A stretch of DNA of 64,000 bases, from IMG/VR virus record IMGVR_UViG_3300030060_002561, positions 1 to 64,000 of that record; one strand, 5' to 3'. Made by a program: the position numbers and the translations under genes. The stretch is from a virus. Taxonomy: Duplodnaviria; Caudoviricetes. The notes beneath the pieces are model-generated. The model saw only the letters and a program-made list of their open reading frames with translations, searched no databases and was not told the DNA's origin. Shown piece by piece: positions 18,520-57,571 of the stretch (positions within the stretch are counted from its first letter, which is position 1; every line of letters starts with the position of its first letter).

Positions 18520-19868
18520 CAGAATCTACCTACCGCGCTTGTCGTTCTGTTCATCTGTATTCCTATCTCCCTTGCTACCTTTGTGGCGATGTCTCGTATC
18601 TCTGCATCAGAAGCACCAACCCTGCCATTCACATGGACATTGATTGTGTGTCCTCCCATCATTCTCTTACTCTCCGTATTATTGTGTACTCTAGCACCTG
18701 CTGGAAGCGATACCAACTCTGGCCCTCTTTCTCCTACCAACGCTACTCCGCTTCTTGGTGTGACACCACCAGTTGCATATCCACCTAGCCAACTTGGGGC
18801 AATGCTTCGATAACCATGGACTATTGCCTTCCCTAGCCCTACTAGAGCCGCTATGATTATCTTACCCAATCCAAACAACGCACCTAGTAGTATATTCCAG
18901 AATCCTTTCAGAACCTTCGTAAATCCTTTCCATATCTTACCAAAGTCTCCTTGGAATACACCTTGGAACATGGTGAATAAGCCACCAAGGACATCCTTCA
19001 ATCCATTCCATATTTGGTCTAATTGCGGTTTTAGCCCACCTAATTGGTCTAATGTAGCCGTAAACTTGGGCCATACCTTTCTAACTATCATGATAAAGAA
19101 TGTAATTAGCAATAACCCCATAGTTAGTTTTAGAAATATTGAAAGGCCCACATCCAAGAACCTACCAAGAGTAGTTAGTTTCTTTCTAAACCAGTCATTT
19201 ACTTTCTCTGCTTTCTTTCTAAAACTACCTTGTAGAACTATTTCTTTAACCCATTTCATTTTCTTGAATGTGTTTCCTAGCATGTTTGCAGTAAATCCAC
19301 CAATACCTGAATCTTTCATTTCTTGATTGATTGCTGTTAGTTTTCCATCCTTACCTCTTTCTGCTGATAATTCCTGTACCTTTCCATATTTTAGGAAGTC
19401 TCTCATTCCTGCTTTAGTAGTCATCCTACCTTCTAAACCTCTTTGCACTTGAGCATATTGTTTTTGAATTTGGGACTTAGCAATTTCTTCTGCATCACTC
19501 TCCGTGTATCCCTTCAGTTGCAGTCCTTTCTTCATCTGCTTGAAATAATCTGATTGACCTATCTCCTTGTACTCCTTCTTCAGTTTCATCATGGTCTTAG
19601 CCAAGTTCTGGTTGGCTTCCATCTGCTTCATCTGATTCTCTAGAGCCTTGTTATTAGCCTCGTTGAAAACGTTGATTGTCTGCCCTACAGCACGAATCCT
19701 ATTCTGTAGTTTCCACAATCCAGAACCCGAAAGAATCCTAGATGCTATTGTCCATACTTTACTGCTATCTGAAATCTCACCGAACTTTACTACTAGGCTA
19801 TCAGTCTCGGCGTTCAATTGTGAAATAGCATCAGACAATGCGGAAGTGGATGATGCAACATCAACCAT
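18519..19868 (-). CDS. Tail tape measure protein (short, 449 aa)
   Basis: Helical, with hydrophobic segments and W-spaced repeats (IWNGLK, IWKGFT, FWNIL). The C-terminus has the classic YATGG..ALVGERGPELV.LP.GARV.NN motif. It follows the tail chaperone. Confidence 0.85.
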   Translation of the reverse strand: MVDVASSTSALSDAISQLNAETDSLVVKFGEISDSSKVWTIASRILSGSGLWKLQNRIRAVGQTINVFNEANNKALENQMKQMEANQNLAKTMMKLKKEYKEIGQSDYFKQMKKGLQLKGYTESDAEEIAKSQIQKQYAQVQRGLEGRMTTKAGMRDFLKYGKVQELSAERGKDGKLTAINQEMKDSGIGGFTANMLGNTFKKMKWVKEIVLQGSFRKKAEKVNDWFRKKLTTLGRFLDVGLSIFLKLTMGLLLITFFIMIVRKVWPKFTATLDQLGGLKPQLDQIWNGLKDVLGGLFTMFQGVFQGDFGKIWKGFTKVLKGFWNILLGALFGLGKIIIAALVGLGKAIVHGYRSIAPSWLGGYATGGVTPRSGVALVGERGPELVSLPAGARVHNNTESKRMMGGHTINVHVNGRVGASDAEIRDIATKVAREIGIQMNRTTSAVGRF

Positions 19869-20091
19869 TTTCTCTCATTCTCCTTGACTCTCTTTCTATC
19901 TCATCCGATTTGTATTTCTCTACTTCTCCGTGTATCAGTATCATCTCCATCATTAGGCTCAATGGAGTATGTTTCGCGTGGTGTGGGTCTATGCCGAATG
20001 TCTTGCAATATGTGTATAGAAGAAGAGAGAATGACACAGAAGCGTCACTCGCTCTTCCTTCTAATGCTTGACGTATCGCTAGACTTTTCCC
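19861..20091 (-). CDS. -1 frameshift extension of tail assembly chaperone (gpT-like segment of gpGT)
   Basis: Slippery G GGA AAA at 20091-20085. The -1 frame is open without its own 5' start and reads KSLAIRQALEG...LYTYCKTFGIDP...RMRENG to TGA at 19863-19861, overlapping the TMP start. Confidence 0.8.
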   Translation of the reverse strand, partial: GKSLAIRQALEGRASDASVSFSLLLYTYCKTFGIDPHHAKHTPLSLMMEMILIHGEVEKYKSDEIERESRRMRENG

Positions 20092-20432
20092 GTATCAGCC
20101 TCCATCAAATCGGTGAATGGGTTAGGGAGAATATCCTTTAGTTGTTCTCCGATGAAGGGGCTTAACCTAAGAATCTCCGTAGTCGATAGAGATGGCTCGG
20201 TCTTGTCGATAAATTCTTCAGCCATGAATCTGTACATCTTATTCAAGTCTAGATTCATACTTTCCTCTGATAACTGCATAACAGAAGATAGGGCTTGTTC
20301 TACTTGTAGCCAAGTAGGTTCCTTTACCCAGACTTTCAGAATCTGGTCTGAATCCGGGCTTACTTTCAATTCATGGCATTCGCTTTCTGTTCTTGCGAAC
20401 AGCATATTCTTGTCATTTACTATTTCACTCAT
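20079..20432 (-). CDS. Tail assembly chaperone (gpG-like)
   Basis: 117-aa acidic ORF between the tail tube and tape measure, ending at a slippery heptamer. Confidence 0.8.
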   Translation of the reverse strand: MSEIVNDKNMLFARTESECHELKVSPDSDQILKVWVKEPTWLQVEQALSSVMQLSEESMNLDLNKMYRFMAEEFIDKTEPSLSTTEILRLSPFIGEQLKDILPNPFTDLMEADTGKV

Positions 20433-20497: not shown

Positions 20498-22063
20498 TTA
20501 CTCGCTCGTAGCAACACCTCCGATTGACAATACATGCCATCTTCCTTTGTATTGGACTGTACCTAGGCTTCTAGCAGATACTGCCAACTCTACTTCAACT
20601 GCACCTTTGTCATCGGGTAGGGGAACTGTTACGTTCTGTACCAAGTAATCATTGAGTTGCAACTTGAGAAGTTCTCCAGAATCCTTGACAAAGGAAACCT
20701 CGATTACTCCACCAGAATGCTCTGTCTCTGTTCTCAACTCATCCCATACCTTGGTGTCTGTGATTAATAGTGTGAATGATGCATCATAGTTTCTCTGTCC
20801 GGGTACGTGCATTGAGGTAACTTCCCGACTGTAATTACCTATGAATCTGTGAGGGGTTATGTTATTGTTGATGGTAATGTTACCATTCTTTACTCTGGCA
20901 AAGGTCTGCCCAAATATCTTGATTGCCCCAGATGAGAACATGAAGGGTTGGTTCTCTGCATCTGTACCGAAGTTAAACAACTCGCTTGCCTGTAGTTTCC
21001 CTCTGTTTGGTATGTGACCATCGAAGGTTGCACTTGCACTTGCACCGGGAACATCGAACGCTCTCCTAGTAACGAAGTCCACGGAAGCCTTGACTTCCTG
21101 CCCTTCCTCAAAGTTGATTGCAAGGGAGTTTACTTGGTTTCCTGTGAATACTCTTGCATACATGTTTGAGTTGTTGGTGTTATCATCAACGACCTCTGTT
21201 GCAGTTCTACCTTCCTTGGCGTAGCACATCTCTATTGCGAATGATGGAAGAGCCGAACCGTTTGCCTCTGTGAATGTATATTCGTACAACTTGCTTTCTA
21301 CCCCATCAGTAATGCTTGATGCGTGAACAAGATGAAAATCTGGGTCTGTGGTATCTGTGCTTTCTCTATATGCTGGAGTTAAACTAGTGTGTATGGGTGG
21401 ATAGAAAGCCCCTCCTATTGCTCGGACAATACTCTCATCGCCGTTATTGACGTATGTTCCTTCGTCAGTTGCATGTATGTGCGTAGCAGAAGTTTCCATT
21501 GTAGCGTCTATTGCATACTTACCTAATGCGTAGTATAGCCAAGAACCATTGTTCAACGCGATGTCAAGAGAACCACCACTTACTGTCTCATTGCCTTTGA
21601 ACTGGAATCCGAAGTTGCGTGTGCTTCCAGTTGCTAGATTCAATTGCTTCATCTCGACTTCTACCGAAGGCGGATTGAATGTATTGACTAGTCCTAGCCA
21701 ATGGTCTGATAGTAGAGTTGTCTTACTACTGTCCTTTGGTCCCGGTACTGGTGCGCCAAACGCTAGAATGACCAAGTTAGCATGGTTATTTCCATCCTTT
21801 ACTAGAGTCTCATCGAATGTGATGGTCGTAGAAGAGTTATCCTTTATCACAAGATATTGGGTAGATGCCGCGGTACCATTGTGAATTTTAGCAACACATC
21901 CCTTGTATAGTCCGGGAACTAAAAGAAAATCTGCCGTTACACCGGCATCAAGTGTTGCTACTGCTCCAGAGATGTCACATTGATGTAGAAAAATGTCACA
22001 CTCCGGGGCTAATGTAGTCATTGCACCTGCGCCAATAAACACCTCATTACTCACTGAAATCAT
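20498..22063 (-). CDS. Major tail tube protein (non-contractile tail)
   Basis: 521 aa with the tube pattern GNETVSGGSLDI...PSFAIE...VFTGNQVNSLAINFEEG...ITINNN...GQRNYDASFT; position between the terminator and chaperone. Confidence 0.75.
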   Translation of the reverse strand: MISVSNEVFIGAGAMTTLAPECDIFLHQCDISGAVATLDAGVTADFLLVPGLYKGCVAKIHNGTAASTQYLVIKDNSSTTITFDETLVKDGNNHANLVILAFGAPVPGPKDSSKTTLLSDHWLGLVNTFNPPSVEVEMKQLNLATGSTRNFGFQFKGNETVSGGSLDIALNNGSWLYYALGKYAIDATMETSATHIHATDEGTYVNNGDESIVRAIGGAFYPPIHTSLTPAYRESTDTTDPDFHLVHASSITDGVESKLYEYTFTEANGSALPSFAIEMCYAKEGRTATEVVDDNTNNSNMYARVFTGNQVNSLAINFEEGQEVKASVDFVTRRAFDVPGASASATFDGHIPNRGKLQASELFNFGTDAENQPFMFSSGAIKIFGQTFARVKNGNITINNNITPHRFIGNYSREVTSMHVPGQRNYDASFTLLITDTKVWDELRTETEHSGGVIEVSFVKDSGELLKLQLNDYLVQNVTVPLPDDKGAVEVELAVSARSLGTVQYKGRWHVLSIGGVATSE

Positions 22064-22855: not shown

Positions 22856-23958
22856 GATATGAAATGGATGATGTTCTTCTTACCATCAATAATCTTGTTC
22901 GCCTCTTCAATTAGTATATCGTGCTTGGTCTTCAAGTCGATGTTTGAACCTGTTTCAGCAACAAGGATAGAATTGTCATCATGCCTAATTACTTCGGCGG
23001 CTACTAGTTTCGTAGCGGCTTCGTGAATAGGTGCAGGTACTCTTCCATCACCTGCGACATATGTGACTCTAATGGAGTGATTCTTGATGAATGGATACTT
23101 ACTATGAAAGAATATCTTACCTTCATGGCTTATCTGCCAGAAGTCATCTAGCCTCCCTTGTGTCTCATGGTCTGTAAATCCAGATACACTTCCGACTCCT
23201 GCACTTCCATCCTGCGTATCCACAGAAGCAATGGTGCAACTAGAGCCATCATCACCCATCAACAACGATGAGATTGTTACCTTGTCACCATCCTTGGTAG
23301 CATAGAAGAAATCAGATATATTTACTGATGTGTTTCCAACGGCAGTCACAGTCTTACGTGCAGTTTCTCCTGTAAACTTAGCCGTTTTCATTGGATATAC
23401 TTCATTGATTGCATCTACCAATTGACTGGCTGTTGTCTTCGGGCCAAAGGAGTCAAAGAAATGAGTTCCCTCTATTATCTCAAAGGTATACGTTCCTGCG
23501 GTAAGTGTAATCTTCCAAGTCTGTGAATTAGTAGTAGCAGAGGATGGCATTGTGATACTAGCAGTAGCAGAAGCCAAGTCCACCCAATCGCTTCCTTGCC
23601 ATATCTCTAACCTCACAAGTTTCTGAACCTTCGGAAATTCCAGTTGAACGAAACCAATGTAATCCCTGTACATAGTTACAGGATACATAAGATGGCGATT
23701 TGCCTCAAACGAAGAAAACTCATCTTTGTAGATTAGTGGTCTGTATGAGTGCTTGGTTGCATCATCTATCTTTTCTTCTACTCTCTTGATGAGTTTACCT
23801 ACCTCTGCTCTCGTTGGTGTAGAGAAGTCTGTAAAGGACTCTATTTGGAGTAAGTTAGAAACATCTGTATGAGTAGTGTAGAATCCATTTCCTATTGTGT
23901 AGTTTGGATTGATAGACGTAAAATCGCTTGGGGAACCTAGTTTAACCATTTTAACCAC
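22852..23958 (-). CDS. Head-tail adaptor (HK97 gp6/SPP1 gp15-like) with inserted domain
   Basis: N-terminal YTTHTDVSNLL...LIKRVEEKIDD and C-terminal IRVTYVAG..VPAPIHEAATKLVA adaptor motifs. Confidence 0.7.
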   Translation of the reverse strand: MVKMVKLGSPSDFTSINPNYTIGNGFYTTHTDVSNLLQIESFTDFSTPTRAEVGKLIKRVEEKIDDATKHSYRPLIYKDEFSSFEANRHLMYPVTMYRDYIGFVQLEFPKVQKLVRLEIWQGSDWVDLASATASITMPSSATTNSQTWKITLTAGTYTFEIIEGTHFFDSFGPKTTASQLVDAINEVYPMKTAKFTGETARKTVTAVGNTSVNISDFFYATKDGDKVTISSLLMGDDGSSCTIASVDTQDGSAGVGSVSGFTDHETQGRLDDFWQISHEGKIFFHSKYPFIKNHSIRVTYVAGDGRVPAPIHEAATKLVAAEVIRHDDNSILVAETGSNIDLKTKHDILIEEANKIIDGKKNIIHFIS

Positions 23959-26878
23959 CGCTATAGATTACTCTTCTTAAGTCTTGATAATTGTTCTTTA
24001 TCTTCATGAGCGCATTCACATCCTGTGCTTTCTCTTTATCGAATATGTTCTTCTCACCTTTACGAGAGTCATATGTCGCTCTCCATTGTTTTCTCCCGGC
24101 CTTTACTTCTGGCTTGGTACGAATAAGTTGCCTTTGGTGTATGCTATCCTTGTTCTTGTCAACGGGCTTACCTAGCCACATTAGATTCATTTGGGGTTGT
24201 ATGAATGGGTCTTCATCATCATCTATCTGAACTCCCCCTGCATTTTCTAGAAGTTTCTTGAGGTAGTCCTTATGGTCATAATAAATTTCTATAAGACCTT
24301 GGCCCTTATTTCCTATACTTGTCATAATTTCCTCATGTGCTGAGTCACCCGACATCGTGGTAAACAACTCCGATAGACTGTAACTAAGACCGACATCTCC
24401 CTTTGGCCTGTAAAAGAGACTTGTCTTTCCAGTTCCCAAACCATCTATGATAGCCTTGTCTTGTGGCTCCATCTTTGCTTTATCTACATCTGGTTTTGCC
24501 AGTTCGATGTTATCTATGTACATGATAATCTTATTGATATCTTCAACCAATTTAGTTAGGTCTGCTACTGTTTTAGTTGTATATCCCTGTGTAAAATCAT
24601 TTAAGTCAACCTTAGCAAATCTGAACTTTCTAAATGGTGGAGTCTTGTCGTCTACTTCCATTCTCTGACTTTCAACTATTGGAGTGCCTTCTCTATTTTT
24701 ACCTTCAACAAGACGGCCTTTTTCATCAATGGTATCTGCTTCGTAGAATTTACCCGGTTCTGTCGGTTTTTCCTTGACCTTACCTGTCTCCATGTCTACC
24801 TCATCAGGTGCATCTGCAACTTTCTTTTTCCAAGCATTGAACAACTCTGTGTATTGTGGGTTCTCTACTGCTTTCTTCCAATCTGGGTGGTCTTTTATTG
24901 CAGGTATTTCCTCTTCTATTTCCTCATATGCTTTGGTATCTGGATTGTATCTATTTGCTAGTCTAATTCCACCTTCTGGATTCTTCAATGCATATGCATC
25001 GTTAGTAATCAAAGCCGCATACGATACCAAATCTTGCACTAGTTCTTCTTCATCTGTATATCTGTCAAGCATCTTTGCAAGTTCAAACTTAGGCATACTT
25101 TGAATCAACTGATTGTATTTGAAAAGAATGAATGTCACTTTCAGCAACTCTGGTACATATGCCATAAACTGCGAATCTTCTTTTGTGTCCTTTCTCTGTA
25201 GTGACATTAGGAATTTATCATATCCCGCATCTCCTTGGAACGGAGCATAGTTGATTTTGAATTCAGTAGTCCCAATTGATATAGAGCCATTAGAAGGTGT
25301 TATGGTTGATAGAATCATTCTCCTTAATGCATGTACATCTCTACCGCTTTTAGGTGGCTTTGATAGTAGAGCGTTCTTAATGTCGGTTTCTGTCAACTCC
25401 GTCAATCTTGCATTGTACGCTTCTCTAGGTGTCAAGTTATCTAATTCTGTACCGTCAAATCTTTTCAAGGTATAATTTGCACTAGTAATTATCCTTTTAT
25501 TGTCTTTGTCAGTTCCTTCGATTCCTTTAGGAGTAAGATATTCTACACTGTAGTTATCTACCTTCTTCAATTCTCTCCTTTGACCTACACTCGATTTGAT
25601 GATATCCATCGCTTTCATCATCTTTTCAGCAACCTCATCCTCATCTGGACTTCCTGCCTCTAACACTTCAATCTCTTCTTGAGGTTCTTCTTCGATGTCA
25701 CCTTCACCTGTCTCAGCATCAGCACCAGTCTCAGCACCTCGCATATCCTTTATGCTTTGCTTAGTATCCGCAATCTTATCTTCTAGGTTCTGTAAATAGG
25801 TATCGACTTCCTCTGGTGTGAGAAAGTTCTCTTTCTCCAGTCTCTTGAGTTGTCTCTTGAATTTTCTATAGTCCTTCATATATCCCCTTAAACCCGAAGA
25901 ACTTTCCGCAGGTTCATCCTCAAACTTATCCATTCCCTCTAGGATTTTATCAAGCATGTTCTGCATTTCTTCTGTGTCTGCTCCTTCTGGAGCATCCTTC
26001 ATCTCAAACTGCCATTCATCCTTCGCTGGGTCATAGTACCCATGAATAGCCATGATAGCCTTGATGTAATCCTCAGTTTGAATTTTAATCGTATCTCCTT
26101 CTATTGATATGTTATCCAAGAACATCTGAAAGGTATCGCTGTTTCTACCTATGTCCACTATTGGTTCTCCCTTGTCAAACTTGGATAGTAGGGATATGGT
26201 TCTGTTTGGCTTGTCTGCCTCTTGGAAATCTGGTTTGGGTGCTTCGGGTTTTTCTTTGACCTTACCTGCTTCATACTGCTTCATATCATCTTCATATTTT
26301 TTCTGTTGCTCTGGTGTCACCGCAGTTATCTTACCACTAGGAGAAAGCCCTGTACCTGCTTCATAGCCTACTACCTTCTGAATGGTAGATTCGCTATCCA
26401 ATCTCTCTAGAGTTAGATTCTCCCCTTCCTTGCCACCTAGACGTTTTATCGTGGCTTCGGAGAGATTCAACTCCTTTGCTAGAAAATCTTCCTTTTGAAG
26501 TATCTTTATCAATAGTGAAAGATTCTCCTTTCCTAGTTTTTTCATGAATGTATCGAAGTATCTCTTCTTCTTGGTATCAGTAAAACTACCGGGCTTGTTC
26601 TTCCTAGTGGATATGTTTGCATCTGCAAAATCACTCTCATCTACATCAGCAAGTAGTGGCATCACTTTCCTTGCTTTGTTCATCTTTGCAGTTTGATTCT
26701 TACCTAGATTTTTGAAAGGATAGGCCGTTAGATACTGGAATGCTATGTTTCTCAAGAATTCTTCAAAGTCTGCTGATGCAGAAAGATTGTCAAAAACCGC
26801 ATTCTGATTTTCTAGGCGTATCAACTGGCCCGGAATAATCATTTTTTCCTTGTATCTATCTTGTTTAATCAGAACCAT
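23951..26878 (-). CDS. Large charged hypothetical protein (975 aa), possible virion-internal protein
   Basis: Long intact K/E-rich ORF with an acidic linker followed by MKAMDIIKSS. Confidence 0.6.
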   Translation of the reverse strand: MVLIKQDRYKEKMIIPGQLIRLENQNAVFDNLSASADFEEFLRNIAFQYLTAYPFKNLGKNQTAKMNKARKVMPLLADVDESDFADANISTRKNKPGSFTDTKKKRYFDTFMKKLGKENLSLLIKILQKEDFLAKELNLSEATIKRLGGKEGENLTLERLDSESTIQKVVGYEAGTGLSPSGKITAVTPEQQKKYEDDMKQYEAGKVKEKPEAPKPDFQEADKPNRTISLLSKFDKGEPIVDIGRNSDTFQMFLDNISIEGDTIKIQTEDYIKAIMAIHGYYDPAKDEWQFEMKDAPEGADTEEMQNMLDKILEGMDKFEDEPAESSSGLRGYMKDYRKFKRQLKRLEKENFLTPEEVDTYLQNLEDKIADTKQSIKDMRGAETGADAETGEGDIEEEPQEEIEVLEAGSPDEDEVAEKMMKAMDIIKSSVGQRRELKKVDNYSVEYLTPKGIEGTDKDNKRIITSANYTLKRFDGTELDNLTPREAYNARLTELTETDIKNALLSKPPKSGRDVHALRRMILSTITPSNGSISIGTTEFKINYAPFQGDAGYDKFLMSLQRKDTKEDSQFMAYVPELLKVTFILFKYNQLIQSMPKFELAKMLDRYTDEEELVQDLVSYAALITNDAYALKNPEGGIRLANRYNPDTKAYEEIEEEIPAIKDHPDWKKAVENPQYTELFNAWKKKVADAPDEVDMETGKVKEKPTEPGKFYEADTIDEKGRLVEGKNREGTPIVESQRMEVDDKTPPFRKFRFAKVDLNDFTQGYTTKTVADLTKLVEDINKIIMYIDNIELAKPDVDKAKMEPQDKAIIDGLGTGKTSLFYRPKGDVGLSYSLSELFTTMSGDSAHEEIMTSIGNKGQGLIEIYYDHKDYLKKLLENAGGVQIDDDEDPFIQPQMNLMWLGKPVDKNKDSIHQRQLIRTKPEVKAGRKQWRATYDSRKGEKNIFDKEKAQDVNALMKIKNNYQDLRRVIYSGG

Positions 26879-26887: not shown

Positions 26888-27610
26888 CTATGCAAGCCAC
26901 TTGGCCCAAGCAATGCCCTTACTGACGGCATTAGCAAGACCAAGCCCGCTTGCGGGCGGGGTGTATGTCATCTGACCGGATACAGGGTCTATCCAATATG
27001 GATTGTTCATATTGTCATATCCAGAAGGAGGTACGGGATATCCAGATTGGTTGTTGAATGCCATTTGTTGTTGCATCATCGTGTTGTTCATCTGGACAGA
27101 GGCGTTACCACCTTGTATCATTGATGGGTCTATGCCACTAGGATTGGGCTGACCGGGCATACCACCCACCATTGCTTGCTGTTGTGTGACCTGCTGTTCT
27201 TGTGGCATAGCAAATCCTTGAGCCTCAAGGTATTGCGTCTTAGCCATTCTTCTCTGCATGATGACTTCGGAGTTTATCGCAGAAGCAAGGAGAGTCTGTA
27301 TGTCTAATTCGATGTTTGCCTGTGTGATAGCATTGAGAGCATTGGTAGAATCTACAGATAGAGAAAGATTACCATTGTTGGAAGTCACGAAAGCGAGATT
27401 TGTCAATATCTCACTAACGGTCTTGTTAACCACATCACCCACTAGTTGTGCTAATGCAGATAGAAATGCCTCACCATGATACTGAAAGAAATCCTCTACG
27501 TGATTCTCCTGTAGAGTCAACAGATTGTTCATTGTCTTGAACTGAGCCTGTTGATTACTTTGCATCTGATTATACAGGGAACTATTGCTTGTTCCGAAAA
27601 GCCCCATCAC
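26888..27610 (-). CDS. Q/M-rich hypothetical protein with low-complexity tail and C-terminal amphipathic helix
   Basis: 240 aa; QQQ/MM/PP-rich C-terminal half ending GLANAVSKGIAWAKWLA. Confidence 0.65.
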   Translation of the reverse strand: MMGLFGTSNSSLYNQMQSNQQAQFKTMNNLLTLQENHVEDFFQYHGEAFLSALAQLVGDVVNKTVSEILTNLAFVTSNNGNLSLSVDSTNALNAITQANIELDIQTLLASAINSEVIMQRRMAKTQYLEAQGFAMPQEQQVTQQQAMVGGMPGQPNPSGIDPSMIQGGNASVQMNNTMMQQQMAFNNQSGYPVPPSGYDNMNNPYWIDPVSGQMTYTPPASGLGLANAVSKGIAWAKWLA

Positions 27611-28281
27611 GCATCACTCTCCTTAGTGGTGACCTTCGCACCCTCGGTCAATAACGTTTTCACTCGTTGGTTAATTGTATTTTGCTCTATTAGCAACCGA
27701 AACAATTCTTCTTCGATGTTTTCTTGTTCTGCCGTAGGTGGTTTAATTGTCCAACCGACAGAAGAAAGTGACATGATATCAGTTTCTTTCAAGGTAGTCA
27801 AAGGACCAGAGGACAATGGATTCAGAGTCTGCATGGATGGGGTCTTAGGTATGTATGCGCTGAATGACAATCCATGTTCCTCTGCTAGTACCTGTTGCTC
27901 TAGCATCTCGTATTGCCTGTGTATACCTGCATGTTTCTCGCAGTAGGTTCCTCGCATTGGGTATCCCTTGCGAACCTTGTGTAGTGGTAGAGGTGGTCGA
28001 AGATTATCACTTGCATCCCAGACTTTGTGTGTACCACACACCACACATCTATCTTTGATGTTGTACTTGAATCTGTATGGTATCTTTAGGAATGTTTTCT
28101 TCTCAGGTGTTAGTACCTTGATTATCTCTTTCAATTGTTTCTTTGGCTTGACGCTCTTGTATTCATATTGCATTATGGAACCCGCGCTTCTAGCATGTTC
28201 CATTCTATCCATGAATGCCGTATTGGTTACATTCGTTGTCGAAGAACCTATCAAACTTGGTGGTTGGAATGACATTGACAT
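27607..28281 (-). CDS. Zn-finger protein with C-terminal coiled coil
   Basis: CVVCGTH...YCEKH; C-terminal heptads EELFRLLIEQNTINQRVKTLL. Confidence 0.65.
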   Translation of the reverse strand: MSMSFQPPSLIGSSTTNVTNTAFMDRMEHARSAGSIMQYEYKSVKPKKQLKEIIKVLTPEKKTFLKIPYRFKYNIKDRCVVCGTHKVWDASDNLRPPLPLHKVRKGYPMRGTYCEKHAGIHRQYEMLEQQVLAEEHGLSFSAYIPKTPSMQTLNPLSSGPLTTLKETDIMSLSSVGWTIKPPTAEQENIEEELFRLLIEQNTINQRVKTLLTEGAKVTTKESDA

Positions 28282-28293
28282 ATGTTCACCGAA

Positions 28294-28965
28294 CTAGTAG
28301 TCCTTTATCATGGTTAGGACACCTCTGTAGACCATCTCAGAGTCTGTCTTGGCACTTACTATGTATTTGTAACAAGGAATTCCCTTGTCGTTTAATCTTT
28401 GAATGCCATCTCTGAATGCAGAGAAAATAGGATGCTGTTCTATTGGCCCATCATGTTCATACTTGTCTTTCCACAAGTCATACTTGTTAGCCCATATTCC
28501 TACTGCTACTGGATAGTCTGATTCTCTTTTCTTCTTTCTCTTACCATTGATGTTCCATTCTGTACTGCAAATTGTATCCACTAGGAAAGTCCAACACAGT
28601 TGTTGTTCGATATCATAATGCTTGTCCATGTGTCTATCATCCATCATGAAGATGATGTACTTGACTCTTCGATTCCTCATATCGTTTAACCAGTCATTCC
28701 AGTATACCGTCTGTCCACCTACATCAGCAGTCTTCACAGTATGTGCATCCCCGTCTAGTTTGACGTACTTCCTACTTGCACGTTGCAATCCTTCTGTCCT
28801 ATGTCGAATATCTGGAACATCACCTCTCGTTCTCAACTGGTGATTCATAGTGGTCTTACCTGCTCTGGTAGCACCATATATTCCGAAGTTGATTGCATGT
28901 ACACGTTGGTATAGTTTGTTAAGTCCCTCGACTATCAATATGGCAAAACCTGCCATTACTGACAA
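28294..28965 (-). CDS. Small GTPase, Arf/Sar1-like
   Basis: G1 GATRAGKTT, G2 HRTEG, G3 DVGGQ, IIFMMD strand, G4 WANKYD, G5 VSAK; hydrophobic/amphipathic N-terminal extension of about 25 aa. Confidence 0.9.
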   Translation of the reverse strand: MSVMAGFAILIVEGLNKLYQRVHAINFGIYGATRAGKTTMNHQLRTRGDVPDIRHRTEGLQRASRKYVKLDGDAHTVKTADVGGQTVYWNDWLNDMRNRRVKYIIFMMDDRHMDKHYDIEQQLCWTFLVDTICSTEWNINGKRKKKRESDYPVAVGIWANKYDLWKDKYEHDGPIEQHPIFSAFRDGIQRLNDKGIPCYKYIVSAKTDSEMVYRGVLTMIKDY

Positions 28966-28969
28966 GATA

Positions 28970-29194
28970 TCACCACAGATGGTCCCAGAAGTCTACTAGG
29001 CCATTCCAAGCCATTGATAGGGTGTTGATTCCATAAACCGCTAGGAGTTGTCCAAGTGCAAAACTACTCAGACAGAAGATTCCGCCCCATAGGTAGAACC
29101 TAGCCCTAAGAAACCAGATATCAGCAGAGTGCGCTCTTTGTAGGTCATATGCAAGGGTTGACTCATCCATTCCAAATAGGATTTCGCTTACCAT
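28970..29194 (-). CDS. Small membrane protein (74 aa)
   Basis: Hydrophobic segment FYLWGGIFCLSSFALGQLLAVYGI followed by an aromatic amphipathic tail. Confidence 0.7.
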   Translation of the reverse strand: MVSEILFGMDESTLAYDLQRAHSADIWFLRARFYLWGGIFCLSSFALGQLLAVYGINTLSMAWNGLVDFWDHLW

Positions 29195-29209
29195 ACATAT
29201 TCCTCACAT

Positions 29210-29617
29210 CTACTGGTTTTCAAGTGTTAAGAACGCAGGAGTCATTGTCTCTGGTTCTTCGGCCTTCACCGTTGGAAGAGTAGTATCCCCGTAGGGAGTG
29301 TAGTTCTGCTGGAAGCGAGCCATCGACTCTCGCACTCTTCTCTTGTTTTGCTCTTCTCTTTCCTTCCTACCCCAGTAACCATCAATGGCTCTCCTAAGTA
29401 GACCTTCCTCAATCATATCGCTAAGGAACACATCAAATGCCACTTTGACAACAAGTATCCCACCTACCGTACTAATGCCAAATAAGATGGCATGTGCTTC
29501 TGGCCCGTATGGGAAGGATATCCCGTACTGTGAGTATGCGAATACATTCACACCACACATAGAACCTACGAACAGTATCGCCATAATCATGCGGGTGTCT
29601 GTTTCTAGGCTTGGCAT
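29210..29617 (-). CDS. Two-TM membrane protein with charged C-terminal helix (holin-like topology)
   Basis: Hydrophobic segments IMAILFVGSMCGVNVFAY and AILFGISTVGGILVVKVAFDVF, then RKEREEQNKRRVRE. Confidence 0.7.
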   Translation of the reverse strand: MPSLETDTRMIMAILFVGSMCGVNVFAYSQYGISFPYGPEAHAILFGISTVGGILVVKVAFDVFLSDMIEEGLLRRAIDGYWGRKEREEQNKRRVRESMARFQQNYTPYGDTTLPTVKAEEPETMTPAFLTLENQ

Positions 29618-29626: not shown

Positions 29627-29938
29627 TCAACTATAGTTAACGGTGACTGCAACAGTAGCACCTGACGCAGTTACATCTACTAGTATTCCATCTGATAGCA
29701 AAGCCCCATGAAAGTCATGCTCTAAGTTCGTTACTGCGTTTGGTAGGTATATTCTTGCTATCTCGTCAGCACTAACCTTCGTTGTGTCGTGACTGTCATA
29801 GATGTTAACTGTCGCAGTAGAACCACCATCAGAACTGATATGAATACTGTTTAATCTAACCTTCTGTGGAGACTTACCACCAACTACAACAACGTTGTCT
29901 GGACTAACTAACAGTTTGCTAGTTGCTACTGTGGTCAT
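29627..29938 (-). CDS. Small beta-rich virion protein (103 aa)
   Basis: Beta-strand pattern VRLNSIHI...TVNIYD...GILVDVT...VTVNYS; located downstream of the MCP. Confidence 0.55.
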   Translation of the reverse strand: MTTVATSKLLVSPDNVVVVGGKSPQKVRLNSIHISSDGGSTATVNIYDSHDTTKVSADEIARIYLPNAVTNLEHDFHGALLSDGILVDVTASGATVAVTVNYS

Positions 29939-30462
29939 CCTTCTGCCTCCAATAGCGCATCAATTAGAATCGACTTCTTACCATCTGCCTTGATTCCTCT
30001 CTCATCGAGTAGAGCCTTGAGTTGCTTGTTGGTGAGTTTCTCTAGATTTGGTGGCAGAGGGGCAAGGACTTCCTTTTCTTCCTTGACTGGCTTCTCCATT
30101 TGAGGATGAATCTCTTCCTTAGCCTCTGGTAGTTTCTCCGGCTTGGGCTTGGCCTTACCACCGAAGAACGACTTGCTCTTTCCGAATATTTTCTCAACCA
30201 TAGTCGGACCATCATCATCCTCGGTCAATTTATCATAGTGACCAACTAGATGGCTTCTCTTGTACTTTGACATAGTAGCCAAGTCCTTCTCATCGTTTGA
30301 GTCTAGGACTACTGTGTAGTTGTCATCTCTAAGAAGCGAACTAGCATACCTCAAGGGTATGTCTACGTCTTGTTTGTATCCTACAACGTATCTGTCAGTA
30401 CCGAAATTTATTCTCATTGCTCGACCATTCAATGGTCTGTTCGTTAGTCTAACCTTAGCCAT
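29935..30462 (-). CDS. Protein with C-terminal SAP/HeH DNA-binding domain
   Basis: LEKLTNKQLKALLDERGIKADGKKSILIDALLE. Start moved to ATG 30462 (MAKVRL), which follows an AGGTGA SD. Confidence 0.7.
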   Translation of the reverse strand: MAKVRLTNRPLNGRAMRINFGTDRYVVGYKQDVDIPLRYASSLLRDDNYTVVLDSNDEKDLATMSKYKRSHLVGHYDKLTEDDDGPTMVEKIFGKSKSFFGGKAKPKPEKLPEAKEEIHPQMEKPVKEEKEVLAPLPPNLEKLTNKQLKALLDERGIKADGKKSILIDALLEAEG

Positions 30463-30483
30463 ATTCTCACCTAGTAATAGAGG

Positions 30484-30525
30484 GTAGCGACCCCCTTCCT
30501 GATGTTCTAGGAAGAGGGCCACTAC
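30484..30525 (-). terminator. 17-bp stem-loop after the capsid/decoration genes (terminator or mRNA-stabilising hairpin)
   Basis: GTAGTGGCCCTCTTCCT-8 nt loop-AGGAAGGGGGTCGCTAC pairs fully, including G-U pairs. Confidence 0.55.
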
Positions 30526-30932: not shown

Positions 30933-32354
30933 TCACGCAGACTTTAGGTTGGTTATCTTACCTTGTCCCTTGAAGAACGAGCAAGCAGTCTCGCCCATGG
31001 TTCTGTACAGACCTGTGTTACCAAGCCTGTCAACACCGAATGGGTTGCCGTTAGCGATACCATCCTCAAAGTATTGAGTAGGCTTCATCACACTCATCCA
31101 CAGATGGTCTGTGTCCAGAAGAAGGATGTCGCTCAATCCGTTGGTAACTGACGAAGCAGTTGTGGATGGCATGTCCTTTGCTGGTATGATGGGTATGTCG
31201 TAGTAGGTTGCTACACGGAAACCGACTTCAGCACCTTTGGGTCCACGGACACCGTTGTGGGTAGGTACAATCTCCTTCCTGTCCATGAACCTCTCTTGGC
31301 TCTGTAGTAGGTCCGAGATGTGCTGGATAGTATCGTATCCAGTAATCATTACCTTCGGGTTTCCACCGTTCTGCCTTATCTTCCTAATCATGTCGTTAAG
31401 GATGGATAGAGTTAGAACCCTAGCAGATGCGTATGATGTACCGAAGTCAACCTCTGCATCTAGGTAAGTCCTGTCTCCAGTATTGTTTATCACAACATCG
31501 TCAACGCTTCCTGCGTCACCACCATCGGCGGCAGACGTAACTTCTCTGTCTGTTCCGAAAATCTTCCTTACTGCAAGGGAGATGTCGGTTACACCAGTAT
31601 CGTTCTCGCTCCTAGCCGTTATGTTGTCTAGGTACATCTGTCCGATTTCCTCGGCAGATGAGACAATCTTGTGGAGCGAAGTGTAGTTCTCCATAACTCC
31701 AGTCTTGTTGCTGTCTGTGATGTCATCTCCGTTGACTGCGCCATCGACATCCGAGTATCGCTCTAGTGGCATCAGAAGCATAACGTTCTGAACCTCTGCG
31801 TGGTGCTTACCCATGTCCTCTCTAACGATAGAACGAATGTCACCTACACCGTCATCAATAGCGGCCATCTCCATACCAACCTCTGAGAACTCAAACTTGT
31901 GAGCAATCGTCTTAGGGCTGATGTAGAGTTTGGTGTACTCTGGAGATAGAGCAGGGATGTCTGCTAGAGCCTCGTTCTCTGTGACTCCACCTAGTCTGTC
32001 TGCTCTAGGGGTTGCAGAACCTGCGGCTCCGCTTCCTACTCCGAAGGCGGCAGAAGCCCCACCGGATGGTCGGCTTCTTAGAACCCTCCAACCAGAGGAA
32101 GTGTAAGGTCGCTTTGCCATCATCGAAAGTGCGTTAACTTCCTGATTCAGCATTGACCAAACCTTCTGTCCGTATAGGACTCCGTATAGGTCGGACAATC
32201 CAGTGGCGGCAGTAAAGTCTCTGCCACTTGCATCGTGTGGTGTTCCAAATCCTCCGACTACACCTGCGCTCTTTAGTAGTGCATTGCCCTGTGCGCCCCT
32301 CATTCCATAGGTTGCGGCTTCAAGGTCTTTCATTGTCTTAATATATCCAGTCAT
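30933..32354 (-). CDS. Major capsid protein (HK97 fold)
   Basis: 473 aa directly after the protease. Motifs YGQKVWSMLNQE, ISPKTIAHKFEFSE, IRQNGGNPKVMITG, VATYYDIPIIP and GKITNLK match halovirus/Magrovirus-type MCPs. Confidence 0.92.
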   Translation of the reverse strand: MTGYIKTMKDLEAATYGMRGAQGNALLKSAGVVGGFGTPHDASGRDFTAATGLSDLYGVLYGQKVWSMLNQEVNALSMMAKRPYTSSGWRVLRSRPSGGASAAFGVGSGAAGSATPRADRLGGVTENEALADIPALSPEYTKLYISPKTIAHKFEFSEVGMEMAAIDDGVGDIRSIVREDMGKHHAEVQNVMLLMPLERYSDVDGAVNGDDITDSNKTGVMENYTSLHKIVSSAEEIGQMYLDNITARSENDTGVTDISLAVRKIFGTDREVTSAADGGDAGSVDDVVINNTGDRTYLDAEVDFGTSYASARVLTLSILNDMIRKIRQNGGNPKVMITGYDTIQHISDLLQSQERFMDRKEIVPTHNGVRGPKGAEVGFRVATYYDIPIIPAKDMPSTTASSVTNGLSDILLLDTDHLWMSVMKPTQYFEDGIANGNPFGVDRLGNTGLYRTMGETACSFFKGQGKITNLKSA

Positions 32355-32356: not shown

Positions 32357-33583
32357 TTAATCACCCCTCGCTAGGTTGTGTATATCTCCCCATGACAGAC
32401 CGTGTGCATCCTCAACTGATGTTGGGAAGTTTTCGGGTAAGTCAAAGGCGACTTCCTGTGCCTTGCGAATTTCTTCATCCTTCTCAGTGAGAGACTTTCT
32501 CAACTCAGCAAACTCTGCCTTTAGTCCAGCAACGTCTGCGCGAGCATCGTACTCGCTTCTCTCTGCGGCGGATTTCTTCAAAGCAAGTTCCTCTTGGAAC
32601 CTAGCACCGAAGGTTTTGCTTAGGTTGTCGTAAGCAAGTTTCTCCAATTGCTCTGCTTTGAAAGCCTCGTAAGCCTTCTCTACGTTCTCGGCACTGAGGT
32701 CCAAAGTAGAGAAATCAGTCGATTCTAGACCCTTAGAGACTGTGAGTGGTGGAGGTGTTGCTTTGGGTGAACCACCGCTAACAACTTCCTCTCCCGCCTC
32801 ACCATGTTCTCTTGTGGTGTCCTCATCGAGTGCCTTCTCTTCCTTGTCCTCGTCATCATCCTCTTTGTATGACATGTCGCCCATCAGTTCTTCTTCCATG
32901 TCATCGCCTTCATCGGCTTTCATTTCGGATGTTGCCATCTTTTCATCTTCTTCTTCTTCCTTGTTAAGTTGCTCAACCTGCTTCATTAGGCTGTTCAACT
33001 CTTCAAGTGCTTTTTCCAGTTTTTCACTCATATTGTTTTTCACCTCCGACTCTTGTTTCAAGATGTCGAATTTCGCTTCCGGGTTGATTCCTTTCTCGCA
33101 GATTGTGACTTCATGTAATTCCAACTTATCTATTTCGTTGTATTCTCCATACTCGTCAGATGTTCTCTGCTTCTTAGAAATCGCTTGCCCTCCTATACTA
33201 AATGACCTAAGTGTTCCTTTTCGGATGTTTCTAGAGATTTCCTTCGCTTTTTCTATGTCATCTCTCATTTTGATAACGACATAGAATCCAACGTCATCCA
33301 CACTTGTTTTGTGTAAGATTCCGTTTTTATCACGATATTTCTCTACTACCTCCCCGACTTGAACATTTGAATGGTTTGACATTACATTTCTGTACTTCTT
33401 CTCTCCCATGTATTTCTTGACTGCTTCATCCAATGCATCTAGTGTGATAAGGTCGTTTTGCTTGTCAACGATTTCTATTGATGCATATCCTCCTATTACT
33501 AATCCGTCAGACTTCAGTATACTAAATTCTCTTTCCTCATTTGCCTTTAGTAGCAGTTCTCCTGATGCTAACACTTTCGACAC
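32357..33583 (-). CDS. Prohead protease (HK97 gp4/S78-like) fused to acidic coiled-coil scaffold
   Basis: IGGYASIEIVDKQND, catalytic-type MSNH and RSFSIGG, LHEVTIC..GINPEA; acidic coiled-coil C-terminus. Confidence 0.9.
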   Translation of the reverse strand: MSKVLASGELLLKANEEREFSILKSDGLVIGGYASIEIVDKQNDLITLDALDEAVKKYMGEKKYRNVMSNHSNVQVGEVVEKYRDKNGILHKTSVDDVGFYVVIKMRDDIEKAKEISRNIRKGTLRSFSIGGQAISKKQRTSDEYGEYNEIDKLELHEVTICEKGINPEAKFDILKQESEVKNNMSEKLEKALEELNSLMKQVEQLNKEEEEDEKMATSEMKADEGDDMEEELMGDMSYKEDDDEDKEEKALDEDTTREHGEAGEEVVSGGSPKATPPPLTVSKGLESTDFSTLDLSAENVEKAYEAFKAEQLEKLAYDNLSKTFGARFQEELALKKSAAERSEYDARADVAGLKAEFAELRKSLTEKDEEIRKAQEVAFDLPENFPTSVEDAHGLSWGDIHNLARGD

Positions 33584-33604: not shown

Positions 33605-36199
33605 TTAATCTGATTTTTTAGTTGGAAATGACAAATCTGCGTATTTATCTTCTGTAATATCCCAGAGTTTTGTATCATCCTTCATATCCAACATCTCTTG
33701 TTTCTTACCTGTCCAGACAATCCAAGTCTTCTTCTCATCTAGAGGTACAACTCTAACGTGGAATCTAGTATCGAACTTGTCACCTTCTAGTTTGTATTCA
33801 TGGTATCCTTCTTTCTGTACACCTAGTATTAACTTACCAGAATCTATCTCCTTCTTATGTTGACCTAACCGTTTTCCTACAATAGCAGGGAACTTCCCAG
33901 ACTTACCAAACAAGTCGTATATGTCCTCACTGTTTTCTATATCAATCTCCCAGAAGTTTCTCTTGTCATTAACATCCATGATGAAATCCAAGTTGCCATC
34001 TTCTCTCAAGATGATGCTAAACGAACCTGTTTCTCTTTTTTTTAATTCCTCGACATCCTTCTCTAGTACATCTGGTATGGCAGTAAACTTGTTGGGATGA
34101 TGATATCTCAGACTATCCTGCTTCTTCATCCAAGTCATCAGATTCTCATCGCTACTCTGGAAAACCTCTTCGTATGTCTCTGGGAACTCCTTCTTTACGA
34201 AATCAACTATCTTAGGAAAGGCAGTTGGTTTGTTCTTGTATATGTCTATTATCTCATTCTTGATTGCGATTCTTAATTCTGACCTTCTGGTTTTCAACAT
34301 CCTCTCTAGTTCAGACTTCCACATGTCTAGATTGTACAATGCGTTCTTCTGCATAAGTGAATCACCTTCAAATCCATATATGGTGAAACCATCAAAGTCG
34401 CTCTTCAAGATTATCTCAGCAGTACCATGTATGTCATCAGTTATCATATACGACTTCTTTTCATTGGTCTTGTCCTTTATTCCAGTTGTGATATTGAACG
34501 GGCTGAGTTGTCGAACCCCAATCATAGCATCTGAAGTCAATGATTTCTTGGTCTTGGTAGATAACTTCTCCAATGTGGATAGTTTGTCTGACTGAGTTAC
34601 TTCTGGTATCTCTATCACTTTAGCAGAGTAGAGATTGAATCCCTTCTTATTCTTCTTGACTTCATCCACCTTGACTCTAACTATGTCTCCGACACTTACC
34701 TTTACCTTGGTGTTGAGTGCCTTACCAACTGAAACATATGCCTTGTCATCCATCTCCGTAGTTGTATAAGTCCTAGCCTCTTCCGCAGTAATCGGGCCTA
34801 CTCCCATAGTGTAAGTATGCATTCCATTGTTAGTGGATTTCTTATCTAGTACAATAACATCCAAGTCAACGAACTTTTTCCACTTAATCCACTTCGGATT
34901 CTTCTTCTTTGTAATTGGATATGTTGACTCCATATCCTTGATTACCACTCCCTCCGATGCAGGTAGTTCCATGATATCCTTCGCATACTCTCCTACTTCC
35001 TTGATTGAGTCTGCGACTCTGGTATCTTTCTTCGATGGGAATGCGAGAGAATCAGATGAGTGTTGACTGAATTGGTATAGAAGGATGTTATGTCTCTCTC
35101 TCAATGGTTCATCATGAATGTCCTTGCCCTCATGTTGCATTATGTCAAACACATGCGCTCTTAGTTCTCCACCTTTCTTGTTCTTGAAAACATGAGCAAT
35201 GGTAGAAGCCCGATGTAGTGGTTCATCATCCTCAAACAGAACCAACTCTCCATCTAGTATACAATCCCCGAACTGCTTCTTCCTTAGTTGCTCGACTTGC
35301 TTCTCACATTTGTCAGTAATATCCTTCTTGTTGTATGAGTATACCTTGATGTTATCCTTCTTCTTGTGAAGTTGTATTCTCATGCCGTCATACTTCTCTT
35401 GAACCAACCACTCTCCAGTAAATCCCTTCAACTCCTTCAAGTCATCTAACTCAAATATCCTGTACATCGGTTTGTTTGGTATGATGAAATCTATTTCCGA
35501 TTTCTCATCTACACTCTTCTCGTCTTCGCTCTTCTCTAGGTCTAACTCAACTAGATTGTCCCATTGTTCATCTTCGTATACGCCATTGAACATCTTGTCG
35601 AGTCGCTTCAATGCTCCCTTGAACTTTGACTTGATTCTGCTTTGGTCTTCATCTTCTGCCCCATAGTGTTCTATGATGTAGAGAGGTATGTCATCCATCT
35701 CTAAATCCAATCCCATTGCACCTTGAGTGACATTATCTCCCTCCATGTCGTGTTCTTCCCATATTTTATCGGGAAGTGCATTGGAATGGGAACGTAGTGC
35801 ATAGTGAATAAATGCAATGAAGAGTCTGTCACTCTCCAATAGGGTGTTTATCACATCCCCTTCAAACTTCTTGGAGAACGGGTCGCTAACTTTCTTGGAC
35901 TGGAACCTCATGTCCTTGACGGCTTCGTATACCTTCTTGGCTTCTAGAGTGGTTGGGTCTTTAGCAGACTTGTCGAATAGAACCTTCTCTTCTAGATACT
36001 TCTTCAATTCCTCAGACAGTTTGTTTAGTGAGTCGAAGTCATCTCTGATTTTATCTATGACTTCGTGCCATTCCTTCTCATACTCTGCTTTGTCCTCTCT
36101 GGCTGAAAGATAGGCGTATCGTGTCTTCTCAAAGAAATCAAGAATTGCTCTAGTCAAATCCTCAGTTTCTTTCTCAAACATCAATCCTGTTTCAACCAC
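33605..36199 (-). CDS. lig: ATP-dependent DNA ligase with long N- and C-terminal extensions
   Basis: Motif I QEKYDGMR, III ILDGELV, IIIa VFDIM, IV EGVVIK, V WIKWK, followed by an OB domain. Confidence 0.92.
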   Translation of the reverse strand: MVETGLMFEKETEDLTRAILDFFEKTRYAYLSAREDKAEYEKEWHEVIDKIRDDFDSLNKLSEELKKYLEEKVLFDKSAKDPTTLEAKKVYEAVKDMRFQSKKVSDPFSKKFEGDVINTLLESDRLFIAFIHYALRSHSNALPDKIWEEHDMEGDNVTQGAMGLDLEMDDIPLYIIEHYGAEDEDQSRIKSKFKGALKRLDKMFNGVYEDEQWDNLVELDLEKSEDEKSVDEKSEIDFIIPNKPMYRIFELDDLKELKGFTGEWLVQEKYDGMRIQLHKKKDNIKVYSYNKKDITDKCEKQVEQLRKKQFGDCILDGELVLFEDDEPLHRASTIAHVFKNKKGGELRAHVFDIMQHEGKDIHDEPLRERHNILLYQFSQHSSDSLAFPSKKDTRVADSIKEVGEYAKDIMELPASEGVVIKDMESTYPITKKKNPKWIKWKKFVDLDVIVLDKKSTNNGMHTYTMGVGPITAEEARTYTTTEMDDKAYVSVGKALNTKVKVSVGDIVRVKVDEVKKNKKGFNLYSAKVIEIPEVTQSDKLSTLEKLSTKTKKSLTSDAMIGVRQLSPFNITTGIKDKTNEKKSYMITDDIHGTAEIILKSDFDGFTIYGFEGDSLMQKNALYNLDMWKSELERMLKTRRSELRIAIKNEIIDIYKNKPTAFPKIVDFVKKEFPETYEEVFQSSDENLMTWMKKQDSLRYHHPNKFTAIPDVLEKDVEELKKRETGSFSIILREDGNLDFIMDVNDKRNFWEIDIENSEDIYDLFGKSGKFPAIVGKRLGQHKKEIDSGKLILGVQKEGYHEYKLEGDKFDTRFHVRVVPLDEKKTWIVWTGKKQEMLDMKDDTKLWDITEDKYADLSFPTKKSD

Positions 36200-40505: not shown

Positions 40506-40606
40506 ATTCCTTCCTCCACAAATAATCTAATTCTTTCATCTGTCTCTTCATTTAGTTTGTCAATTTCTTCTTTCCATTTTCTTGCGACTTCAAGCAATCT
40601 GCTCAA
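40484..40606 (-). CDS. Possible 40-aa helical microprotein
   Basis: TTG overlapping the portal stop; reads MSRLLEVARKWKEEIDKLNEETDERIRLFVEEGIWNGKKY and fills the gap. Confidence 0.4.
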   Translation of the reverse strand: MSRLLEVARKWKEEIDKLNEETDERIRLFVEEGIWNGKKY

Positions 40607-57561: not shown

Positions 57562-57571
57562 GTATGCGAGG

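Follow-up and report, generated by a model that had tools for sequence, protein, structure and literature searches.

The window analysed here, a stretch of 64,000 nucleotides (positions 1 to 64,000 of IMG/VR record IMGVR_UViG_3300030060_002561, which is 82.7 kb long and estimated to be 88% complete), carries on its minus strand a block of five genes (26888-29617) in which an Arf-like GTPase is embedded in an unprecedented viral membrane cassette. As delimited in the list of open reading frames (ORFs) with their translations, these genes encode, in the order of transcription, a membrane protein (gene 1, 29210-29617, 135 aa), a smaller protein with one transmembrane (TM) segment (gene 2, 28970-29194, 74 aa), the GTPase (gene 3, 28294-28965, 223 aa), a Cys/His protein (gene 4, 27607-28281, 224 aa) and a Q/M/N-rich protein (gene 5, 26888-27610, 240 aa). 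We hold with high confidence that the block is an Arf-like GTPase cassette. Magrovirus-like contigs that carry it number many hundreds, and the comparison of two deep viral clades indicates that its five genes moved between them as one block. A role in virion release is proposed, more tentatively, by analogy.

The comparisons below build on two sets of loci. Clade 1 comprises the 80 closest IMG/VR loci, whose GTPases are 72-100% identical to that of the window, and clade 2 is a second set of 80 IMG/VR loci with GTPases ∼35% identical to it. Altogether, IMG/VR loci encoding GTPase relatives number 478 in the close clade and 288 in the distant one, and a word-indexed protein search with the 223-aa GTPase returned 318 relatives, with Tara, JGI and ENA among the sources listed and with some relatives carried on contigs of up to ∼100 kb.

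Conservation and relocation of the five genes

Gene order in clade 1 is kept in all 80 loci wherever the contig reaches, and runs from the protease and the capsid gene through up to three small genes to the five cassette genes, after which come a large, variable gene and then the tail genes. No gene of this region is better conserved than the GTPase, whose median identity across the 80 loci is 78%, compared with 69% for the capsid protein. When the window's neighbour genes were searched for by tblastn in the clade-2 loci, no match was found; read gene by gene, one of these loci (L089) displays the same five-part layout. An iterated hidden Markov model (HMM) links the Cys/His proteins of both clades (74/80 and 80/80 loci), and another, seeded in clade 2, reaches the Q-rich proteins of clade 1 (74 and 80 loci), a connection to which low complexity may contribute. 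The membrane proteins of clade 2 match those of clade 1 in position and build: in both clades, a charged stretch follows the one or two hydrophobic segments of the first, and the second, of ∼75-85 residues, has one TM segment and a Trp-rich end. The five-gene order is complete in 74 of the 80 clade-2 loci, and the synteny that the initial annotation had singled out as a check is thus observed in both clades.

Outside IMG/VR, a set of genomes from 185,579 species contains only 4 loci encoding a GTPase relative, and all 4 carry the cassette, with the five-gene order found in 3 of them and the small TM gene alone undetected in the fourth. Two of the cassette contigs (L162 and L164) are filed in bins labelled as the bacteria Maricaulis and Parvibaculum; they are most likely viral contigs that were mis-binned into bacterial metagenome-assembled genomes.

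The position of the cassette differs between the clades. In five near-complete clade-2 genomes it stands at the head of the morphogenetic block, with the capsid gene following 21-23 kb further downstream, and its downstream neighbour is a homologue of the window gene 51322-51978; in the window, that gene belongs to the same operon as the cassette and precedes it by ∼22 kb on the 5′ side. Because the clade-2 cassette sits at such a distance from the capsid gene and beside this homologue, the five genes moved as a unit, and such a relocation is stronger evidence for a functional unit than their tight spacing. The location between capsid and tail genes is seen in the window and in the 80 close loci, and is not shared by clade 2; the initial description had set the block between the capsid and head-tail connector genes. 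Weighing against a five-gene unit are the tight packing of the whole operon, by which spacing singles out no five genes in particular, and the comparison of the membrane proteins between the clades, for which no homology was detected with hhalign (probability ∼1%). Ratios of nonsynonymous to synonymous substitution rates (dN/dS) lie at 0.06-0.11 for the five genes and are to be read qualitatively only, as dS is saturated (1.4-2.8) and gene 1 is represented by one pair; in these qualitative terms, the cassette appears to be under purifying selection.

The same observations bear on a role in virion morphogenesis, in which the cassette would provide for GTP-driven assembly or head completion with membrane-associated scaffolds, or would encode packaged entry proteins. 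Consistent with this, the window and all 80 close loci place it at the usual site of head-completion genes, and the GTPase is better conserved than the capsid protein itself. We nevertheless consider morphogenesis improbable, given the distance from the capsid gene in clade 2, the presence of two small membrane proteins among the five products, which is unusual for tailed virions, and the outcome of PHROG searches, where no cassette protein fell into a head, neck or tail family at E-values up to 0.1.

Several further searches and observations concern these loci. In L089, a 317-aa protein (2593-3546, plus strand) that resembles HMG-CoA lyases and pyruvate carboxyltransferases by eye is encoded ∼4.5 kb upstream of the cassette; it has no PHROG match at E-values up to 0.01. 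A tblastn search against phage GenBank records returned no match, in a set from which records close to the window may be left out. In a metatranscriptome run, a fraction of 0.11 of the sampled words was present, and contigs from RNA libraries do not by themselves show transcription; among the contigs of this run, a 2.6-kb piece of a relative spans the capsid and protease genes (depth 43), and the cassette is covered only by pieces of 150-300 bases (depth 2.6-12).

A predicted nucleotide-binding switch

Read from a TTG codon, the GTPase gene encodes 223 aa, and read from an ATG at 28956 it encodes 220 aa; the latter (MAGFAILIVEG...) is the likelier start, and N-termini beginning with MAG are found in both clades. 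Its conservation was followed across 159 GTPase relatives, drawn from the 160 loci and the window. The five G motifs that had been noted in this gene can all be read from its translation. G1, the P-loop (GATRAGKTT, 28849-28875), has G31, G36, K37, T38 and T39 invariant in 159/159 sequences, and G2 corresponds to R56-T57, where T57 is likewise invariant. G3 with switch II (DVGGQTVYWNDW, 28690-28725) comprises DVGGQ followed by W89 and W92; here D81, G84 and W92 are invariant, and G83 is kept in all but 9 clade-2 sequences, which have Ala. G4 (NKYD, 28477-28488) is invariant in its N, K and D in 159/159, and G5 (28348-28356) reads SAK in 79/79 clade-1 sequences and mostly AT(R/K) in clade 2. A YIIFMMDD motif is also present, and D109 and R111 are invariant as well. 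Judged by these residues, the nucleotide-binding motifs are intact, and the protein is predicted to act as a nucleotide-binding switch.

An AlphaFold model of the GTPase, with a predicted local distance difference test (pLDDT) score of 87.2 and a predicted template modelling (pTM) score of 0.85, has a Ras-like G domain. Residues 2-22 (28900-28962) are predicted in this model to form an N-terminal hydrophobic or amphipathic helix (pLDDT 59-72), with a hydrophobic moment of ∼0.4. This hydrophobic run is too short for a TM segment, and 145/159 sequences score none; there is also no Gly2 for N-myristoylation, as the protein begins with MSVMAGF or MAGF depending on the start. This agrees with the Sar1-like hydrophobic extension without Gly2 that had been described for it. 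Between helix 3 and strand 5, the family carries a specific insert (28504-28566, residues 134-154) composed of a β-hairpin (model strands 136-139 and 142-145) and a polybasic loop (GKRKKKR). The insert is 21-22 residues long, contains 5-10 Lys/Arg in 159/159 sequences and has a median of 1 acidic residue.

Affinity to the Arf family

Profile and structure comparisons place Arf-family proteins nearest to the viral GTPase. A profile of the GTPase family (A1) finds as its best match in the PDB the Asgard protein GerdArfR1 (8OUN) at an E-value of 5.4e-9, with Ras and Rab proteins at ∼1e-5, and the small GTPases matched by a profile of clade 2 alone (A2) are only Arf-family chains, namely GerdArfR1 (1.8e-7), Arl8, Arl5 and Arf1/2, plus one G-alpha. 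With phmmer, the window GTPase matches a protein (P0166) at an E-value of 4.6e-6 in a set of 1.8 billion proteins, and this protein is a clear Pfam Arf member (57.2 bits). A full-length relative (P0152) scores above the Arf cut-off with 27.2 bits, PF00025 is carried by the nearest named non-viral Atlas clusters, and the structure ranking of the GTPase model is headed by Arf and Arl proteins. An automatic JGI label on some of the homologues reads 'GTPase SAR1 family protein'.

In its working parts, too, the GTPase resembles Arf or Sar1, as far as its sequence and model allow this to be read. A DxGG motif, a Trp 11 residues after its Asp and an N-terminal helix are traits of the Arf/Sar/G-alpha type, and the window GTPase has all of these, the helix as a prediction, together with motifs G1-G5. 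Sar1 also does without Gly2 and has a His in place of the catalytic Gln. The lack of Gly2 is further reported for Arl8 and for Asgard ArfR proteins (bioRxiv 10.1101/2024.02.28.582541, in the text available).

Other results weigh against an assignment to the Arf family. The window GTPase itself scores 16.6 bits against the Pfam Arf model (PF00025; E-value 0.0055), below the cut-off of 22.3, and across 20 members of the GTPase family, Pfam scans favour MMR_HSR1 (14), Roc (13), SRPRB (12) and Ras (10) over Arf (7, matched at E-values up to 0.1, the best being 3.1e-6). A first Foldseek ranking intermixes Rab and Arf, and the spread in structural Z-score between Arf and Rab is below 2. Moreover, the Gln of switch II is often replaced: at position 85, directly after DVGG, the 159 sequences have Gln (81), Glu (66), Asp (7) or His (5). 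The catalytic Gln that the initial annotation had listed among the Arf signatures is therefore present in the window protein, and is found in just 81 of the 159 relatives. Because this position is not a fixed Gln, the mechanism of GTP hydrolysis may differ from that of Arf.

The alternative that follows from the Pfam scans is a generic TRAFAC/Ras-superfamily P-loop protein (MMR_HSR1/Era-like, Roc or MglA-like) with a role at the ribosome or in signalling and with unrelated neighbours. All of the per-member Pfam matches that favour MMR_HSR1, Roc and Ras are below or near their cut-offs, and NCBIfam assigns the family only to the generic small_GTP domain. On the other side, both profiles put an Arf protein first in the PDB and the structure ranking does the same; the DxGG motif, the Trp at +11 and the N-terminal helix are of the Arf/Sar type; and the neighbours are co-conserved with the GTPase and were relocated with it. 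We regard a generic P-loop protein as very improbable on these grounds, and find that in these comparisons the GTPase does not group with MglA or generic P-loop proteins, a grouping that had been named as one that would undermine the Arf reading. The Arf/Sar1-like character claimed for the gene holds for its nearest kin and structures, which are Arf-family, and does not extend to Pfam membership of the window protein. In our reading of the sequence data, this is a virus-specific, highly divergent family whose nearest recognised kin are Arf-family GTPases, and the window protein is not certified as an Arf.

The SR-beta family (PF09439) was tried as a further candidate and rejected, as the window GTPase scores 13 bits against a cut-off of 25, the 12/20 members with matches score weakly and a segment of TM length is missing. 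Among viral structures, the 50 best matches of the GTPase in BFVD are all from giant viruses of eukaryotes, and a mimivirus Rab (5XC5) is among its Foldseek matches in the PDB.

The neighbours of the GTPase

The two membrane proteins have the topology that had been proposed for them. Gene 1 encodes hydrophobic segments at residues ∼8-29 and ∼41-69, followed by a highly charged, helix-like stretch and a tail; two segments are found in 79/80 of its homologues, with a charged fraction of 0.38 after the last one. The product of gene 2 has a TM segment at residues ∼35-56 and a Trp-rich C-terminus, with one segment in 77/81 homologues and a median of 3 Trp in the final 25 residues, where the clade-2 counterpart has 4. 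Neither gene matched a Pfam or PHROG family, including holin families, for which the diversity of holins limits the weight of such a null result.

The Cys/His protein has a conserved core at residues ∼45-145 that includes the motif RGTYC(E/P)xH. Its translation contains the cluster C79-x2-C82 ... C114-x2-H117-x3-H121 (27919-28047), in which C79 and C114 are invariant and C82 and H117 vary; metal binding by this cluster is possible. It was initially called a zinc-finger and coiled-coil protein, designations that we do not retain: in Pfam searches no zinc-finger or ArfGAP family was matched, and no known fold was recognised. An ArfGAP, which would have the CxxC-x16-CxxC zinc finger and an Arg finger of the ArfGap domain, was considered for this protein and found no support, as this pattern is absent. 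Two complex predictions of the GTPase with the Cys/His protein, run without controls, both gave an interaction score from aligned errors (ipSAE) of 0.00, which is evidence neither for nor against an interaction.

Gene 5 encodes a Q/M/N-rich protein with a conserved core of ∼110 aa. From an ATG at 27607, which overlaps the upstream stop codon, it would comprise 239 aa with the N-terminus MGLFG. The Q/M-rich low complexity that had been noted for it is evident, and the amphipathic C-terminal helix is not borne out, as this helix has a low hydrophobic moment (0.26) and is missing in clade 2. Profile searches gave no relevant match in PDB sequences and no usable match in the Atlas. An ESCRT-III or PspA protein was also considered here, as an N-terminal MGLF is frequent in that superfamily, and was dropped as unsupported, with no match to Snf7 or PspA_IM30 at E-values up to 1 and null results in the PDB and the Atlas; the long low-complexity stretch that follows the N-terminus of the clade-2 protein fits such a protein poorly.

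Genome setting and virus identity

From base 1 to ∼57,000 of the window, every gene lies on the minus strand. Upstream of the cassette are the genes for the terminase large subunit (43732-45171), the portal (40603-42252), an ATP-dependent ligase fusion (33605-36199, 864 aa), the prohead protease (32357-33583) and the major capsid protein (30933-32354; SU10_MCP, phrog_24667), the last of which is separated from the cassette by three small genes. On its 3′ side follow a 975-aa protein (23951-26878), two more uncharacterised proteins and then the tail tube (20498-22063; PF18906), the tail assembly chaperone (20079-20432) and the tape measure protein (18519-19868). By these genes, the virus is a tailed one. 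In a single-cell genome of Candidatus Poseidoniales (G001), a clade-2 GTPase and a member of the same capsid family are encoded on one 106-kb contig. This fits a magrovirus, that is, a virus of Marine Group II archaea, which are abundant in the ocean, in agreement with the earlier description as a tailed archaeal virus. As also noted earlier for endolysins, no lysin or holin family was found among the 37 ORFs of the window scanned with Pfam.

Some features of this setting are of interest in their own right. The ligase fusion is part of the morphogenetic block, where it is bounded by the portal-side genes and the gene for the prohead protease, and its DNA ligase domain occupies residues 257-441, with flanks of ∼250 and ∼420 residues to which nothing could be assigned. 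Between the capsid gene and the cassette, a 195-aa protein (29935-30522, minus strand) has a C-terminal SAP domain (PF02037, E-value 1.8e-7, above the cut-off), a DNA-binding motif best known from eukaryotic nuclear proteins; its gene was detected by tblastn in just 39/80 close loci. The 975-aa protein encoded directly after the cassette is acidic and coiled-coil-like, has no family match in Pfam or PHROG and is the most variable of the region, detected by tblastn in 21/80 close loci at 19-95% identity. Beyond the tail genes on the 3′ side lie two giant ORFs on the minus strand, one of more than 2336 aa that runs off the window (1-7011) and one of 2461 aa (7340-14725); neither has a Pfam match at E-values up to 0.001, and their products may be tail fibres or serve in host recognition. 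At ∼57,500-58,000 the direction of the genes and the GC skew switch together: the minus-strand operon ends there and plus-strand genes start, among them that of a UvrD-type helicase (60224-61816). In the single-cell genome, the capsid-family match (G001:C2:79757-80992, minus strand) reads through two TGA and one TAG codons, which may reflect frameshifts, assembly errors or a spliced or recoded gene.

A possible role in virion release

In the genomes sampled from the host order (that of G001), which are partly incomplete, the models for Arf (PF00025), PspA (PF04012) and Snf7 (PF03357) found nothing (0/121, 0/61 and 0/61 genomes, respectively). The result for the Arf model suggests that the virus does not copy a host GTPase, and because all three models found nothing, the virus would bring such a membrane system itself. 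Our literature searches turned up neither a description of the cassette nor a paper connecting a GTPase with magroviruses or viruses of Poseidoniales, and the main texts of PMC5434244, PMC10160649, PMC11706807 and PMC8651126 do not contain the word 'GTPase'; their supplementary gene tables may list the gene. Within the text available, no egress system is described for Magrovirales and holins are proposed only for Adrikavirales (Prabhu et al. 2025, PMC11706807), and as routes of exit a 2024 review names only pyramids, budding and undefined membrane disruption (PMC10791045). For the archaeon Haloferax, ArvA, an Arf-like GTPase, is reported to drive vesicle formation (PMC10927574).

By analogy with Arf, Sar1 and the vesiculation by ArvA in Haloferax, the following mechanism can be drawn. 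Late in infection, the GTPase would bind GTP and, as Arf and Sar1 do, would place its N-terminal helix and its basic loop on the host membrane from the cytoplasmic side. There, the two small membrane proteins would serve as its receptor or as the membrane-breaking parts, and the Cys/His and Q-rich proteins would act as regulator or effector. GTP hydrolysis would set the timing, and as the most likely outcome the host membrane would be locally remodelled or ruptured so that virions are released. The cassette runs in the direction of the head and tail genes, and given this late setting, with no sign of another exit system, virion release is favoured as the purpose of what would be a late, GTP-switched module for membrane remodelling and egress. 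We put this forward as possible rather than probable. More doubtful is the specific form in which the cassette would be a self-contained, GTP-timed exit machine of Magrovirales, with an Arf-type switch and two membrane proteins that open or bud the membrane and thereby release the tailed virions.

Several points weigh against release as the function. It is inferred by analogy, and the place of the cassette among virion genes would equally fit a role in assembly. The absences on the host side are soft, as the Snf7 control is weak (Sulfolobus) and the PF00025 model missed even the viral GTPase in G001.

An Arf-like switch with membrane partners could also do a membrane job other than exit, such as membrane-anchored replication or capsid assembly, the release of vesicles, an alteration of division or cell size, or superinfection exclusion. 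The predicted helix, the polybasic insert and the membrane neighbours apply equally to such a job; ArvA provides a case of an Arf-like GTPase that drives vesiculation in Euryarchaeota (PMC10927574, in the text available); and the cassette is not bound to one genome position. Against it, the neighbours have no match to ArvB (DUF2073) or ArvC (DUF2072) at E-values up to 1, and the co-directional placement with late genes in both clades suits a late function over an early one such as exclusion or replication. On balance, we judge a non-exit membrane job somewhat unlikely.

If real, the exit machine would give archaeal tailed viruses their first known means of egress and would be the first instance of a prokaryotic virus that uses an Arf-type membrane switch; it would also show that Arf-like remodelling of membranes is at work beyond eukaryotes and Asgard archaea. 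With the host uncultured, the conserved and apparently strongly constrained cassette, which can be cloned, is a concrete candidate for the step of exit. It also adds a virus of Euryarchaeota to the known range of Arf-like GTPases, and is relevant to the question of where Arf-type membrane switches originated, and how.

Comparison with known systems

Close to the viral GTPase stand the Asgard ArfR proteins GerdArfR1 (8OUN and 8OUM) and HodArfR1 (8OUK) (bioRxiv 10.1101/2024.02.28.582541, as described in the text available). The viral GTPase is only ∼20% identical to them. Its family adds the hairpin and polybasic insert of 21-22 residues and a longer stretch from switch I to the interswitch, and has a variable residue at the site of the catalytic Gln; furthermore, ArfR proteins are encoded by the Asgard cell, whereas the viral GTPase is encoded by a virus of Poseidoniales. 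From the eukaryotic Arf, Arl and Sar1 proteins grouped in PF00025, the window GTPase differs in its score below the cut-off and in its surroundings, as no homologue of a guanine nucleotide exchange factor (Sec7 or Sec12), an ArfGAP or a coat was found beside it with Pfam and PHROG.

A likeness in organisation, drawn from its published description, exists with the ArvABC system, in which a conserved operon likewise encodes a Cys-rich (Zn-ribbon) protein along with an Arf-like GTPase that has an N-terminal amphipathic helix, and which is tied to membrane deformation in a euryarchaeon (PMC10927574, in the text available). The viral cassette differs in that its neighbours match neither the DUF2073 of ArvB nor the DUF2072 Zn-ribbon of ArvC in Pfam at E-values up to 1, and in the additional presence of two membrane proteins and a Q-rich protein. 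The closest Pfam match reported for ArvA is the Arf model (PMC10927574, in the text available), the same model that matched in 0/121 of the host-order genomes.

Giant viruses likewise encode GTPases of the Ras superfamily, as in the mimivirus Rab and the Ras, Rab and Ran proteins of pithovirus and klosneuvirus. These are of the Rab, Ras and Ran types and come from eukaryotic hosts, whereas that of the window is Arf-like, belongs to an archaeal tailed virus and has no counterpart found in the host order with the Arf model (121 genomes).

Phage lysis cassettes, finally, differ from the viral cassette in that the latter has no match to a holin, endolysin or spanin family in Pfam or PHROG, and to our knowledge, with no search aimed at the point, no known lysis cassette contains a GTPase. 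The two are alike in that small membrane proteins are encoded together in, or at the head of, the late operon: in phage lambda the lysis genes stand before the terminase genes, and in clade 2 the cassette similarly heads the morphogenetic block.

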